From Acidobacteriota bacterium (lineage in GTDB: Bacteria; Acidobacteriota; Polarisedimenticolia; Gp22-AA2), in the NCBI GenBank assembly GCA_046758905.1, contig JBHIBC010000006.1:6686-70685 (forward strand): DNA of 64,000 nucleotides, in the 5' to 3' direction. How positions within the stretch are numbered: the first letter of the stretch is position 1; each line of letters opens with the position of its first letter. Below are positions 45,889 through 54,242 of the stretch, piece after piece. The translations under genes and the position numbers were made by a program. The notes beneath the pieces were generated by a model. It was not told the origin of the DNA and ran no database searches. It worked only from the letters and a program-made list of their open reading frames with translations.

Positions 45889-46440
45889 ATGAAGCGAATG
45901 GTTGCTCTGCTGGCGGTGTCCGTCGGTGTCGTCCTGGTGCTGTCGTCGCCGCGCCCCTCCCGGGCGGCCGAGCGCGCCTACATCGGCGCCCAGAAGTGCA
46001 AGATGTGCCACAACTCCGCGGCCAAGGGGGCGCAGTTCAAGAAATGGACCGAATCGCGCCACTCGAGGGCGTACGCCACCCTCGCCTCGGAGCGGGCCCG
46101 GAAGATCGCGGCCGGGAGGGGGATTGCAGACCCGCAGAAGGCGGACGAGTGCCTGCGCTGCCACGTGGCCGGACACGGCGCGCCCGCCGAGATGCTGACC
46201 CAGAAGTATTCCCCGGAGGACGGCGTCAGCTGCGAGGCCTGCCACGGCCCCGGCGGCGACTACTGGAAGATGAGCGTCATGAAGGACCCGACGAAGGCGG
46301 TCGCGGCCGGCCTGGTCATTCCCGAGGAGAAGACCTGCACGGCCTGTCACAACAGCGACAGCCCGACCTTCGAGTCGTTCGACTTCGCGACCTACTCGAA
46401 GAAGATCGCTCATCCCAACCCGAAGAAGGCCGCGAAATAA
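45889..46440 (+). CDS. cytochrome c554-like tetraheme cytochrome
   Basis: [40 protein letters not shown]. Confidence 0.88.
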
Positions 46441-46883
46441 TGGCTGGGGAGCGGCCGGGGGGCTCGCGGCGCGGCTTTCTGAACTGGTTTCTCGGGACGT
46501 CGTTGGGCGCGATGTGCGCGTCGATCCTGTACCCGGTGGCGCGCTACATCTCGCCGCCGGAGGTGCCGGAGGCGGCGACCTCCAGGGTCGTGGCCGGGCG
46601 GGTCGGGGAGCTGAAGCCGAACGAGGGGAAGCTGTTCCGCTTCGGGAGCCGGCCCGGCCTGCTGATCCTCACCCGCGAGGGCGAGTACAGGGCCTACGCC
46701 GCGACCTGCACCCACCTCAACTGCACCGTCCAGTTCCGCGGCGATCTGCAGCAGATCTGGTGCGCCTGCCACAACGGCTTCTACGACCTGAACGGCGTCA
46801 ACGTAGCCGGCCCACCGCCGCGCCCGCTCGAGAGGTACGCGGTGCACGTCGCGGACGACGAGGTGGTGGTGACCAGGACATGA
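46440..46883 (+). CDS. Rieske [2Fe-2S] protein (copy 1)
   Basis: Tat-like SRRGFL; CTHLNC and [15 protein letters not shown]. Confidence 0.93.
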
Positions 46884-47995
46884 CGGTGGTCCCCCGGGGC
46901 GCCCGCGGGCGGCTGCTCGACTGGCTCGAGGAGCGGCTGGGCCTGTCCCTCCTCTTGAAGCTGGGAAGGGAGAAGCACGTCCCGCTCCACCGGCACACCT
47001 TCTGGTACTACATGGGCGGGATGACCCTGTTCCTGTTCGGCCTGCAGGTGCTCACCGGGATCCTCCTCCTCCTCTACTACCGCCCGTCGTCCGAAGAGGC
47101 GTTCGAGAGCGTCCAGTTCATCGTCACCAAGGTCCCCTTCGGCTGGCTCATCCGCAACCTGCACTCGTGGTCGGCCAACCTTCTGGTCTTCGTGCTGTTC
47201 GTGCACATGTTCAGCGTCTACTTCCTGAAGGCCTACCGGCGCCCGCGGGAGGCGACCTGGCTCACCGGGTTCGCCCTGCTGGCCCTGATGCTGGGGTTCG
47301 GCTTCTCGGGATATCTGCTGCCCTGGAACGAGCTGGCGTTCTTCGCCACCCAGGTGGGGACCGAGGTCGCGGGATCGCTGCCGGTCGTCGGCCACTTCGC
47401 GCTGCGCCTGATGCGCGGCGGCGAGCAGGTGACCGGCGGGACGCTGACGCGCTTCTACGGCCTGCACGTGGCGATCCTTCCCGCCCTGACCACCCTGGTG
47501 CTGGCGGCGCACCTGTTCCTGGTGCAGAGGCACGGGATGAGCGAGCCTCCCTCCGTGGAGGCCGAGCGCAGGCGGACCGGCGCGCCGCCGCGCTCGCGGC
47601 CGTTCGTGCCCGGGTTCCTCCTGCGCGACTGCATCGGCTGGTGCGCGGCGCTTGGGATCCTTGCGGCGCTCGCGGCGCTGTACCCCTGGGAGCTGGGCGT
47701 GAAGGCCGACCCGTTCGCGCCGGCGCCGGCCGGGATCCGCCCGGAGTGGTACTTCTGCTGGATGTTCCAGCTCCTCAAGGTCCTCCCCGGCCACGTGCTC
47801 GGGATCGAGGGGGAGCTGTTCGGGATCGGGATGATCACGCTCGGGGGCCTGTTCTGGCTGTTGGTCCCCTTCATCGATCGCCCCGCCGAGGCGAGCGACG
47901 GCGCGCGCGGATGGGCGCTGACGCTGTTCGGCTTGGCGTCCCTCGCGTTCATCGTGGTGATGACCATCTGGGCCTACCTCCCGGCGGGAGGGTGA
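46880..47995 (+). CDS. cytochrome b of a Rieske/cytb complex (copy 1, fused subunit IV)
   Basis: four His ligands (HSWSA..VH; LH..AH), GYLLPW, RPEWY. Confidence 0.94.
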
Positions 47996-47996
47996 G

Positions 47997-51914: not shown

Positions 51915-51927
51915 GGGACGGCCGACC

Positions 51928-53067
51928 GTGGGACGCGCACCGGGACGGGGCATCGCTCGCTCGCTGCTCGGGTGGCTCGAGCAGCGGTTCAACCTGACGG
52001 AGATGTTCTCCTTCCTGACCAGCTTCGGCCTGTTCCCCGCCGAGCTGGACACCCGGCGGCCGCTTCGCGAATCCATCGACGCGGCGCTGCGAAGACCGCT
52101 GCCCTCCTACGCGCGCTGGCCGCGGGTTCTGGGGATCCTGTCTTTCCTGCTGTTCCTCTTCCTCGGGCTCACGGGCGCGATGCTCTCCTTCTATTACCAG
52201 CCGACGGCCTCGGAGGCCTACGGGTCGGTCACCGGGATCGTCAGGGACGTCCGGTTCGGCTGGCTCGTGCACCAGTCCCACCGGTGGGCGGCGCACCTGT
52301 TCCTGCTCATCCTGCTGGTGCGGGTCGCGCGATTCTACTTCCAGGGCCTGTACAGGAAGCCGCGCGAGGCCCTCTGGGTCCTCGCCGTCCTGACGCTGCT
52401 CGTCGCCACCCACGCCGACCTGACCGGCCGCCTCCTGGCGTGGGACGCGCGGGGATACTGGACCACGGTCCGCGCCCTGGAGGTCCTCTACTCCCTGCCG
52501 ATCCTGGGCCCGGCCTTCTCCTACCTCATGGGGAGCGCCACGGTCGACTCGCTGGTGCTGACCCGCTTCTACGTCCTGCACGCCGCGGCCCTGCCGGTGA
52601 TGCTCGGGATCCTGTTCTACTTGCACTTCTCGGGGGTCCGCCGGGTGGGCCTCTCGCCGGCCACCGGCGAGACCCGGTCGGGGCCGGCGGTGCTCCGGGT
52701 CCACCTCTACAATGTCGTGATCCTCGCGGTTCTCCTGTTCGGCACGGTGATCACCCTGGCGATGGCCCTCCCCGCCCCTTTCGAGCCTCCCGCCGACCCC
52801 CTGAGCACCCCGCCGGGCATCCACCCGCCCTGGTACCTGCTCGCCCCGCACGCCCTGCTGGAGTCGCTGCCCCCGATCCTGCCGCGGCCGGTCGGCGGTC
52901 TGCTGCTTGAGCTGATCCTCGCCGCCTTCCTTCTGCTCCCGTTCCTGGACCGTTCCCCCTGGCGGCCGGCGCGCTCGCGCCGCGCGGCACTGGCGCTCAG
53001 CGCCCTGGCCGTCCTCGCCGTCCTCCTGCTGACCCTCTACGGATACCGACTGGAGGTGGCGCGATGA
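51928..53067 (+). CDS. divergent cytochrome b (copy 2), lacking one heme ligand and PEWY
   Basis: YYQPT..EAY.SV, GWLV, TRFYVLH; second helix-B His replaced by Arg; PPWY. Confidence 0.88.
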   Translation: MGRAPGRGIARSLLGWLEQRFNLTEMFSFLTSFGLFPAELDTRRPLRESIDAALRRPLPSYARWPRVLGILSFLLFLFLGLTGAMLSFYYQPTASEAYGSVTGIVRDVRFGWLVHQSHRWAAHLFLLILLVRVARFYFQGLYRKPREALWVLAVLTLLVATHADLTGRLLAWDARGYWTTVRALEVLYSLPILGPAFSYLMGSATVDSLVLTRFYVLHAAALPVMLGILFYLHFSGVRRVGLSPATGETRSGPAVLRVHLYNVVILAVLLFGTVITLAMALPAPFEPPADPLSTPPGIHPPWYLLAPHALLESLPPILPRPVGGLLLELILAAFLLLPFLDRSPWRPARSRRAALALSALAVLAVLLLTLYGYRLEVAR

Positions 53068-54242
53068 TCGCCTGGGCGTTGCTGCTGGCGGCCGCCGCGG
53101 CCGGCCCTTCCGCCGCCTGCACGCTCTGCCATCCCGCGGTCCGGGTCGAGTTCGAGCAGGGCGTCCATCGCCGGGAAGGGGTCACCTGCGTCTCCTGCCA
53201 CGGCGGCGACCCGGGCGCGGTGTCCGTCGAGGCGGCGCACCGGGGCGCCTTCCGCGGCGTGCCGCGGCGCCGCGACATCCCGAAGCTGTGCGCCTCGTGC
53301 CACGCGGACATCGCCCTGATGCGCCCGTACAACCTGCCGGCGGATCAGTACGCCCTCTACGAGACCTCGCGCCACGGCCTGCTGCTCGCGCAGGGCAACG
53401 AGCGGGTCGCGGTGTGCACCGATTGTCACGGGGCGCACGAGATCCGCCGGCCCGACGATCCCAGAAGCAGCGTCTTCCGCCGCAACATCCCGCGGACCTG
53501 CGCCCGCTGCCACGCCGACCCGTCGCGCATGGGAGGCACCGGGCCGCGGGACGACCCCTACCGGGACTACGCCGAGGGCGTGCACGGCCGGGCCTTCCTG
53601 ACGCGGGACAACCTCTCGGCCCCCGACTGCTCCTCCTGCCACGGCGCCCACGGCGCCGCGCCGCCCGGCTTCGGGGACATCGACAAGGTGTGCGGCCAGT
53701 GTCACGCCACGACCCGGGCCTATTTCCTGGAAGGCCCGCACTACGCGGCCATGCGGGAGGCCGGCCTGCCCGAGTGCGCCTCCTGCCACGACCATCACCG
53801 GATCGGGCCGGCCGACCTGTCGGCGCTGGACTCGGCCTGCGTGGCCTGCCACGAGGAGGGCTCGGACCAGCTGGAGGTGGCCGCCGCCATGCGGACGCTG
53901 TTCACCGCGGCGGCCGAGGAGATCGACAGGGCGCGAGCCCTGGTGGAGCGCGCCGCCGCCATCCCCCTCTACGTGGGGGACTACGAGGCCGGCCTCGAGG
54001 ACGCCCGGACGGCCCTGATGGAGTCCTTCCCGGTGATGCACTCGCTCGACGTGCAGCGCGTCCAGGACTTCACGCTGCGGGCGCGCTCGATCGCGACCGC
54101 GATCCAGTCGGAGATCGAGGGCAAGCTCGAGGGCCGCGCGTGGCGGCGGGTCGGGCTGATGCTCTTCTGGTTCTACCTGCTGCTGACGGTCGCGATCCTC
54201 GTCCGCTTCCGCCGGCGCGCGGCGGCGGAGGCCCTCCGGTGA
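53064..54242 (+). CDS. nonaheme cytochrome c with C-terminal TM anchor (copy 2)
   Basis: 9 CxxCH collinear with 47997..49274 (CHGGDP, AVCTDCHGAH, HGA.PPG). Confidence 0.88.
   Translation: MIAWALLLAAAAAGPSAACTLCHPAVRVEFEQGVHRREGVTCVSCHGGDPGAVSVEAAHRGAFRGVPRRRDIPKLCASCHADIALMRPYNLPADQYALYETSRHGLLLAQGNERVAVCTDCHGAHEIRRPDDPRSSVFRRNIPRTCARCHADPSRMGGTGPRDDPYRDYAEGVHGRAFLTRDNLSAPDCSSCHGAHGAAPPGFGDIDKVCGQCHATTRAYFLEGPHYAAMREAGLPECASCHDHHRIGPADLSALDSACVACHEEGSDQLEVAAAMRTLFTAAAEEIDRARALVERAAAIPLYVGDYEAGLEDARTALMESFPVMHSLDVQRVQDFTLRARSIATAIQSEIEGKLEGRAWRRVGLMLFWFYLLLTVAILVRFRRRAAAEALR

Follow-up and report, generated by a model that had tools for sequence, protein, structure and literature searches.

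In the Rieske/cytochrome b complexes, four histidine ligands of the two b hemes are held to be invariable and the Q cycle is held to be defining. Kao and Hunte (2014) treated the four histidines in this way and removed from their survey the sequences lacking any of them (PMC4122944). The sole exception noted there is the cytochrome b of Pyrobaculum, which is without the fourth histidine and was read as lacking the heme. Here we analyze a 64,000-nucleotide stretch from an Acidobacteriota bacterium (GenBank assembly GCA_046758905.1, contig JBHIBC010000006.1, positions 6,686 to 70,685 of the forward strand; hereafter the window), which carries two modules of Rieske protein, cytochrome b and nonaheme cytochrome c. 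Judged from its sequence, the second cytochrome b (b2, or copy 2) is unable to ligate heme bH canonically, and this state is ancient, conserved and selected. The clade of b2, predicted to hold heme bL only, thus departs from both rules. It could not appear in the survey of Kao and Hunte, because sequences without the four histidines were filtered out.

Several other described systems are close to parts of this locus. A Chlamydomonas b6f complex without hemes bh and ci, the Qi-knockout (QiKO) mutant, sustains phototrophic growth (Malnoe et al. 2011, PMC3112540). Its authors proposed a ping-pong of the electron between heme bL and the semiquinone, with a decrease of H+/e- from 2 to 1 and a flux of about 4 per second (PMC3112540). 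In Rhodobacter capsulatus bc1, Ekiert et al. (2014) studied cross-inactivated dimers with H212N in one half (PMC4152375). The Rieske/cytochrome b complexes of Kuenenia contain hexa- or octaheme cytochromes, and their Qn sites are doubtful (bioRxiv 10.1101/2025.06.25.661457). In Geobacter, the quinol oxidase ImcH works above -100 mV and CbcL below it (PMC7096707). The bc1 complex of Acidithiobacillus ferrooxidans has PPWY as its motif at the quinol oxidation (Qo) site, and an uncharacterised APWY clade has been proposed to run in reverse (PMC4122944).

Module 2 of the window shares with canonical bc1 and b6f complexes the cytochrome b fold, an adjacent intact Rieske protein and an anchored c-type cytochrome encoded downstream. 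It differs from them in the arginine at a bH ligand position, in the replacement of the GY tyrosine and the PEWY glutamate and in an N-terminal insertion of about 21 residues. In addition, a nonaheme cytochrome takes the place of cytochrome c1 or f, and the genes of module 2 always include one for an 18-heme NapC-type cytochrome. The Pyrobaculum protein is similar in being a natural lineage systematically without a heme bH ligand, but there an archaeal genus has lost the helix-D histidine, whereas the b2 clade spans several bacterial phyla, has an invariant arginine on helix B and occurs in a multiheme context. The QiKO complex is engineered and slow and has a wild-type Qo site, whereas b2 is natural and ancient and its Qo site is altered. 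The Kuenenia complexes also have a multiheme cytochrome c instead of cytochrome f and a proposed alternative fate for the low-potential electron. However, they retain both hemes, bP and bN, and an NAD(P) oxidoreductase on the n-side receives the diverted electrons, whereas module 2 lacks the n-side ligands and its cluster contains no such subunit. The A. ferrooxidans PPWY and the APWY sequences keep four histidines, at least in a survey that was filtered for them, and the b2 clade does not. Our literature search found no description of a bacterial Rieske/cytochrome b clade without heme bH, or of this gene unit, although older surveys and the supplements of PMC4122944 could mention one. In the main text of the paper naming the Polarisedimenticolia (PMC8528874), the words 'Rieske', 'cytochrome b' and 'bc1' are absent.

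The cluster consists of the following features, in which heme counts are counts of CXXCH motifs.

45889-46440, + strand: c554-like tetraheme cytochrome c at the head of the cluster; PF13435 at 64.6 bits, four CXXCH, N-terminal hydrophobic segment.
46440-46883, + strand: Rieske1; PF00355 at 44.6 bits, TM_PetC match, motifs CTHLNC ... CACHNGFYD.
46880-47995, + strand: cytochrome b1, a canonical fused b6/subunit IV-like protein with four histidine ligands, GYLLPW and PEWY.
47997-49274, + strand: nonaheme cytochrome c 1; nine CXXCH, multiheme Pfam matches, hydrophobic segments at residues 4-23 and 393-422, the latter a C-terminal transmembrane anchor.
49232-51442, + strand: CbcL-like protein; 13 CXXCH followed by a Ni_hydr_CYTB domain (PF01292 at 59.6 bits), five hydrophobic segments.
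51456-51914, + strand: Rieske2; PF00355 at 53.8 bits, motifs CTHLRC ... CPCHSGAFD.
51928-53067, + strand: cytochrome b2; bc1/b6 fold, putative bL ligands His118 and His218, Arg132, GRLLAW and PPWY.
52321-52323, + strand: the Arg132 codon, CGG, in place of a codon for the helix-B ligand of heme bH.
53064-54242, + strand: nonaheme cytochrome c 2; nine CXXCH, hydrophobic segments at residues 1-20 and 361-384, the latter a C-terminal transmembrane anchor.
54299-55975, + strand: NapC/NirT-type 18-heme cytochrome c; 18 CXXCH, PF03264 at 47.2 bits, N-terminal membrane anchor.

We define module 1 as 46440-49274 (Rieske1, b1 and nonaheme cytochrome) and module 2 as 51456-55975, which usually has the CbcL-like gene before it. 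Module 1 looks canonical. In its cytochrome b1 (copy 1), the histidine pairs are spaced His-x13-His on helix B and His-x14-His on helix D, and the motifs are GYLLPW and PEWY. Cytochrome b2 reads HRWAAHLFLLILLVRVAR, GRLLAW and PPWY in an unbroken frame of 379 codons, and the residues at its four ligand positions are His118, Arg132, His218 and His233, so that the set of four axial histidines is incomplete. A first-pass annotation of this DNA had described both copies in these terms, including the exchange of the second helix-B histidine for arginine in an intact reading frame, and the translations bear it out in full. The best sequence matches of b2 are to cytochrome b6, and in phmmer alignments to solved b6 chains (7r0w_I, E 7.9e-38; 6rqf_I), Arg132 lies opposite the histidine of 'mmilHvfrvy', which we take to ligate the n-side heme from helix B. 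In the same alignment, b2 has no cysteine opposite 'yClgg' of b6, the position of heme ci.

In its domains and fold, the protein is a cytochrome b. The N-terminal domain matches PF00033 at 117.6 bits (cut-off 27.2) and the C-terminal, subunit IV-like domain matches PF00032 at 48.9 bits (cut-off 20.7). The AlphaFold2 model has a mean predicted local distance difference test score (pLDDT) of 88.9 and a predicted template modelling score of 0.88, and Foldseek aligns it to bc1 cytochrome b chains at template modelling scores of 0.70-0.76 (about 0.72), with E values down to 1.2e-13. The protein stays below the cut-off of the NCBIfam cytochrome b6 model PRK03735 (143.5 bits, cut-off 325); its polypeptide is fused, not split. 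The PPWY of b2 is the Qo-motif variant already recorded for A. ferrooxidans bc1, and since position 2 of this motif is a proline, its side chain would not form a hydrogen bond to the quinol (PMC4122944).

A further feature of b2 is an insertion of about 21 residues at residues ~21-62 (window ~51988-52113), which is specific to the clade and highly conserved. Its consensus is RFNLTEIFSF..FGLFPAELDTRKPL, neither copy 1 nor b6 has it, and it is modelled at a pLDDT of 76-86. It would sit on the n-side, near the canonical location of heme bH and of the quinone reduction (Qi) site.

The arginine is not peculiar to this genome. Among 40 related genomes, eight carry a b2 ortholog at 58-68% identity, and together with the window all nine sequences (9/9) have arginine at the helix-B bH position. 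In three of the nine the helix-D bH histidine is replaced by asparagine. The additional histidine of the WAAH motif is found only in the window among these nine. We then counted residues in a set of 120 sequences, comprising that of the window and 119 representatives of 90%-identity clusters, all at 58% identity or more:

Helix-B bH ligand position: Arg in 120/120.
Helix-B bL ligand position: His in 120/120.
Helix-D bL ligand position: His in 120/120.
Helix-D bH ligand position: His in 84/120; N in 28, S in 3, G in 2, T in 2, Y in 1.
WAAH position: His in 12/120.
Tyrosine position of GY: Arg in 117/120.
Position 2 of the Qo motif: Pro in 113 and Ala in 7 of 120; never Glu or Asp.

A scan of species-representative genomes with the N-terminal motif of the clade gave 41 loci, and arginine is present in all 39 that are readable at this position; the helix-D histidine is kept in 31/39 and replaced in 8/39. 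Among 50%-identity representatives, the Arg type was recovered at identities down to about 32%. Twenty-six columns are invariant over 51 sequences with identities down to 31%, and Arg132, Arg135 and the helix-A residue Gly69 are invariant in the clade. The observation is far beyond chance. An assembly error or a private mutation, the first outcome that the first-pass annotation had named as fatal to its proposal, is ruled out by the 120/120 and 39/39 counts. The second, that the WAAH histidine serves as the replacement ligand, is ruled out too, as this residue is kept in only 12/120 sequences. In the alignment of orthologs that it had named as a check, the arginine is invariant and position 2 of the Qo motif is proline or, less often, alanine. 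As to the window itself, contigs of sequencing run X1, which may be the source of the window DNA, cover 51456-52834 with zero differences, and contigs of runs X2 and X3 from the same study leave 52309-52349 uncovered. The missing independent read-level confirmation of the arginine codon is moot given the conservation.

The exchange is old. A FastTree phylogeny of 184 sequences places every one of the 50 Arg-type tips inside one clade of 51 tips (support 0.84). The lone other tip, P0137, has four histidines, a long branch and GNLLPW/LPWF; it may have reverted or be misplaced. The sister of the clade, P0198, has four histidines together with GRLLPW and APWY, and the parent node has a support of 0.995. 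Because P0198 and P0137, the nearest four-histidine relatives, already carry altered Qo motifs, the remodelling of the Qo site seems to predate the loss of the bH ligand. Cytochromes b1 and b2 are 35% identical and the copy-1 clade is not the sister of the Arg clade, hence we regard them as an ancient paralogous pair. This corrects the 'duplicated' unit of the first-pass annotation to two different modules; a recent tandem duplication is ruled out by the same two results.

Histidines at the bH positions are also absent from some sequences outside the Arg clade. In P0177, P0180, P0190, P0272 and P0136, the residues at the two bH positions are F/L, W/W, F/-, A/R and S/A, and some of these sequences have PEWY or PDWY. 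Heme bH may have been lost several times independently, and some of the sequences could be fragments or misalignments.

The b2 gene is part of a fixed unit of four to five genes. Among the 41 loci, Rieske2 lies directly 5' of b2 in 40/40 informative cases, the anchored nonaheme gene directly 3' of b2 in 33/33, and the NapC-type 18-heme gene after the nonaheme gene in 29/29. The CbcL-like gene is directly 5' of Rieske2 in 26/34; among the eight exceptions, two have one intervening gene and two have the gene elsewhere in the locus. A CbcL-like gene is thus common in this context and not obligatory. The records of these loci bear the labels Polarisedimenticolia, Thermoanaerobaculia, Blastocatellia, Aminicenantes, Gemmatimonadota, Eisenbacteria and Latescibacterota, and in a few cases Clostridia or Patescibacteria. 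Five loci with the conserved unit (L058, L066, L071, L073 and L085) come from records of metagenome-assembled genomes labelled 'Patescibacteria group' or 'uncultured Clostridia'. These labels seem to clash with the gene content and the closest relatives, and we suspect a problem of labelling or binning.

The cluster motifs of Rieske2, with CxH...CxxH ligands and the disulfide cysteines, are intact in 43/43 sequences and carry the signature CPCHxGxF. Those of Rieske1 are intact in 12/12 of its type, and 10/12 have CACHNGxY. A tyrosine at this position raises the potential of the Rieske cluster. From their position, heme count and C-terminal anchor, it is reasonable that the nonaheme cytochromes stand in for cytochrome c1. 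The NapC-type protein matches PF03264 over residues 5-142 (47.2 bits, cut-off 24.1), has a hydrophobic segment at residues 1-22 and fails the NrfH equivalog TIGR03153 (61.6 bits, cut-off 134.2). The CbcL-like protein shares with Geobacter CbcL the architecture of a multiheme cytochrome c joined to a cytochrome b domain of the FdnI/HydC type, its PF01292 score being well above the cut-off (59.6 bits, cut-off 30.1). It reaches no NCBIfam model at the cut-off of that model. 'CbcL-like' here denotes architecture only; the protein has 13 CXXCH motifs, unlike Geobacter CbcL, which has 9 hemes. In its membrane domain His509, 552, 566, 660 and 675 are invariant in 30/30 sequences and His468 is kept in 29/30, which is consistent with a two-heme transmembrane chain.

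What could such a unit do? The b2 clade is predicted to keep heme bL, and it is without the bH ligand set and the internal route to Qi; therefore no internal Q cycle is expected. The first-pass annotation had proposed that one half could not run a Q cycle, and the invariance of the arginine together with the relaxed helix-D position (36/120) supports it. Tentatively, we favour the reading that module 2 is a natural Qo-only, non-electrogenic quinol:multiheme-cytochrome oxidoreductase beside a canonical module 1. It would be a natural 'Qi-knockout', in which menaquinol is oxidised at the remodelled Qo site, with GYLLPW changed from Tyr to Arg and PEWY from Glu to Pro. Rieske2 would pass the electrons to the anchored nonaheme cytochrome, from which they would enter the NapC-type 18-heme network. 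Heme bL would be a one-electron buffer, alternately taking an electron from the Qo semiquinone and returning it, in a ping-pong modelled on the scheme for the Chlamydomonas QiKO mutant, so that there would be one proton per electron and no transmembrane charge transfer. We propose that module 2 would serve as the low gear, a quinol oxidase used with acceptors too weak for a full Q cycle, and module 1 as the high gear. Such a split would explain why the modules are often co-encoded yet separable. The use of two gears would parallel that of the Geobacter quinol oxidases at different acceptor potentials.

Several points weigh against this Qo-only reading. The ping-pong flux in the Chlamydomonas mutant is only about 4 per second (PMC3112540); in a natural enzyme the gate would have to be absent. 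Symmetric bH knockouts of R. capsulatus bc1 fail in photoheterotrophic growth (PMC4152375). Copy 2 is tied to the copy-1 type, as detailed below (15/16 and 83/384 genomes; 15/41 loci), which fits physical dependence, and the invariant membrane histidines of the CbcL-like protein could supply the missing transmembrane path. Finally, a decaying n-side half would be expected to be relaxed, and this expectation fails. In 12 matched genomes the conservation ratio of copy 2 to copy 1 is 0.77 on the n-side and 0.71 on the p-side, hence the n-side half of b2 is not preferentially relaxed relative to b1. Given also the conserved Arg135 and N-terminal insertion, the n-side may have a new role, one that the favoured reading leaves unexplained.

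A second class of explanations, which we consider possible but somewhat improbable, is an obligately asymmetric natural assembly, in which the bL-only b2 passes its low-potential electron sideways, to bL of a canonical partner or to the NapC-type or CbcL-like cytochrome. If this is true, two different Qo sites would feed one Qi site, or a quinol-driven bifurcation would export low-potential electrons to the periplasm.

The first form of this idea, the asymmetric b1:b2 heterodimer that the first-pass annotation had proposed, is in our view rather doubtful. The electron from the Qo site of b2 would cross a bL-bL bridge to heme bH and Qi of b1, so that two Qo sites, each with its own Rieske/nonaheme arm, feed one Qi. 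Such electron transfer has been engineered. R. capsulatus dimers joining a half without bH to a half without Qo grow by means of the bL-bL bridge, even when the halves come from two species (PMC4152375). They are an engineered analogue of this model, in which the bH-less half depends on the bridge; however, they are fusions or two-plasmid heterodimers, whereas the b1:b2 pairing here is only proposed. The distribution of the two modules also fits. We sampled 400 genomes evenly across the phylum, each at least 85% complete; the copy-2 type (E <= 1e-60) occurs in 16 of them and the copy-1 type (E <= 1e-90) in 98. The copy-1 type is present in 15 of the 16 copy-2 genomes, in 13 of the 16 at 54% identity or more, and in 83 of the 384 others; these ratios overstate the association because related genomes are not independent, and this kinship counts against the model. 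Among the 40 nearest relatives the b1 ortholog is found in 7/8 copy-2 genomes and in 15/40 overall (G013 included). The dependence is one-way, since module 1 occurs alone in genomes without copy 2, including loci L047-L050. In the b1 orthologs beside copy-2 loci, the four histidines, GYLLPW and PEWY are kept in 13/13.

In 15 of the 41 loci, the sequence retrieved around module 2 also contains module 1, in at least four gene orders. Module 1 is upstream of module 2 in the window and in other Polarisedimenticolia, downstream in Blastocatellia-labelled loci and convergent in Thermoanaerobaculia-labelled loci, and in L080 it abuts Rieske2 without a CbcL-like gene. The assemblies of two further genomes, G004 and G009, break inside the CbcL-like gene, so that the arrangement of the window is evidently shared there. 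In another two genomes b1 and b2 share a contig and are 13-15 kb apart. Against the heterodimer stand several genomes in which the partner is missing or remote. G179 (98% complete, 310 contigs) and G015 (88% complete) show no Cytochrome_B match besides copy 2. G179 is evidently the same genome as that under the handle G042, as contig number and coordinates are identical, and its locus L073 has neither the CbcL-like gene nor module 1. The minimal module 2 unit can thus stand alone. The best copy-1-like match of G041 is only 43% identical, and in G011 b1 and b2 are on different contigs, with a c554-like gene directly 5' of the CbcL-like gene. Each module, moreover, has its own Rieske and nonaheme genes. 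We know of no natural heterodimeric cytochrome b.

In the second form, which we regard as unlikely, the low-potential electron is exported from b2. Heme bL would reduce the membrane-proximal heme of the NapC-type cytochrome, a p-side bifurcation that sends low-potential electrons to a periplasmic or extracellular heme network. Alternatively, it would reduce the b hemes of the CbcL-like protein, so that quinone is reduced across the membrane in a Q cycle in trans. The first-pass annotation had also suggested that electrons are handed to the CbcL-like protein. Loss of the bH ligand coincides with the gain of a second anchored cytochrome, encoded by the NapC-type gene, which is present in 29/29 informative loci, and no NapC-type match is found in the four copy-1-only loci L047-L050. 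The CbcL-like gene with its invariant membrane histidines is directly upstream in 26/34 loci, one gene removed in two and elsewhere in two. A diversion of low-potential electrons from Qn has been proposed for multiheme complexes of anammox bacteria (bioRxiv 10.1101/2025.06.25.661457). However, the CbcL-like gene is not directly upstream in 8/34 informative loci. A predicted complex of b2 with the CbcL-like membrane domain (score 0.00, mark 0.32) counts neither way. Electron export is also disfavoured by the insulation of heme bL from the c-type heme in solved bc1 and b6f structures.

It is quite improbable that the bH pocket of b2 still holds a cofactor, either an unusually ligated heme or a quinone on Arg132/Arg135, so that charge still crosses the membrane. 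The invariance of Arg132, Arg135 and Gly69, the unrelaxed n-side and the retention of His233 in 84/120 sequences would suit it. However, His233 is changed to N, S, G, T or Y in 36/120 and replaced in 8/39 loci, the WAAH histidine is present in only 12/120, and no cysteine is found at the position of heme ci in b6. We know of no precedent for such a pocket.

That copy 2 is a decaying duplicate or an assembly artefact without function is effectively refuted: it evolves faster than copy 1 in the matched genomes (mean column identity ~0.55 vs ~0.75), but its frame is intact in the window and in full-length orthologs, a single in-frame stop is seen in just 2 of 17 matches of the phylum sample, the 26 invariant columns hold over 51 sequences, and synteny is kept across genomes labelled as several phyla.

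A cytochrome b predicted to hold heme bL only is thus a selected part of a fixed multiheme unit, found under the labels of several phyla and in 16 of the 400 sampled genomes. The natural enzyme makes three long-disputed questions testable: whether the Qo site turns over productively without heme bH, what blocks or allows the short circuit between bL and the semiquinone, and whether natural enzymes use bL-bL transfer between monomers. A further question it touches is how the quinone pool is coupled to multiheme networks in Acidobacteriota of sediments and vents, in metal or sulfur respiration.

The genomic surroundings of the cluster are as follows. The window has a G+C content of about 71%, its close homologs carry the source label Candidatus Polarisedimenticolia, Acidobacteriota, and the sequencing runs that contain its DNA are labelled hydrothermal vent metagenome. 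Three genes lie directly upstream of the cluster, the cytochromes being assigned by Pfam and CXXCH count:

41909-43006, + strand: NHL-repeat protein.
43003-44778, + strand: 11-heme cytochrome c.
44768-45688, + strand: 9-heme cytochrome c.

This trio is also found 5' of module 1 in G009 and G036. In relatives, the c554-like gene is followed by either module 1 or the CbcL-like gene. Two genes for NHL-repeat beta-propellers, 38110-39276 and 41909-43006 (both + strand), flank open reading frames without Pfam matches (39203-40081 and 40154-41896). Just upstream of the cluster, window 30011-37817 (+ strand) holds a gene set similar to alternative complex III:

30011-31243, + strand: multiheme cytochrome c.
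31266-34271, + strand: molybdopterin/iron-sulfur ActB-like protein.
34255-35598, + strand: NrfD-like ActC.
35602-36105, + strand: ActD (PF11821).
36582-37817, + strand: second, weak NrfD-like protein.

A third Rieske/cytochrome b system is encoded elsewhere in the genome, at locus L002 (G000:C44:17459-20857, - strand). It comprises a Rieske protein (CTHLGC...CPCHGSGF), a split b6-like protein with WCMGG and a subunit IV-like protein of 381 residues with APWY. The system corresponds to the APWY clade described by Kao and Hunte, and a similar b6-like gene is present in most of the 40 relatives. This APWY-type complex, with its split cytochrome b and WCMGG motif, is separate from module 2. The genome therefore has at least four quinol:cytochrome c-type modules, that is, the three Rieske/cytochrome b systems and the set similar to alternative complex III. 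On the 3' side of the cluster (55978-61329), translations read by eye suggest a tryptophanase-like beta-eliminating lyase on the - strand and, at 57619-61326 (+ strand), a large protein similar to pyruvate:ferredoxin oxidoreductase.

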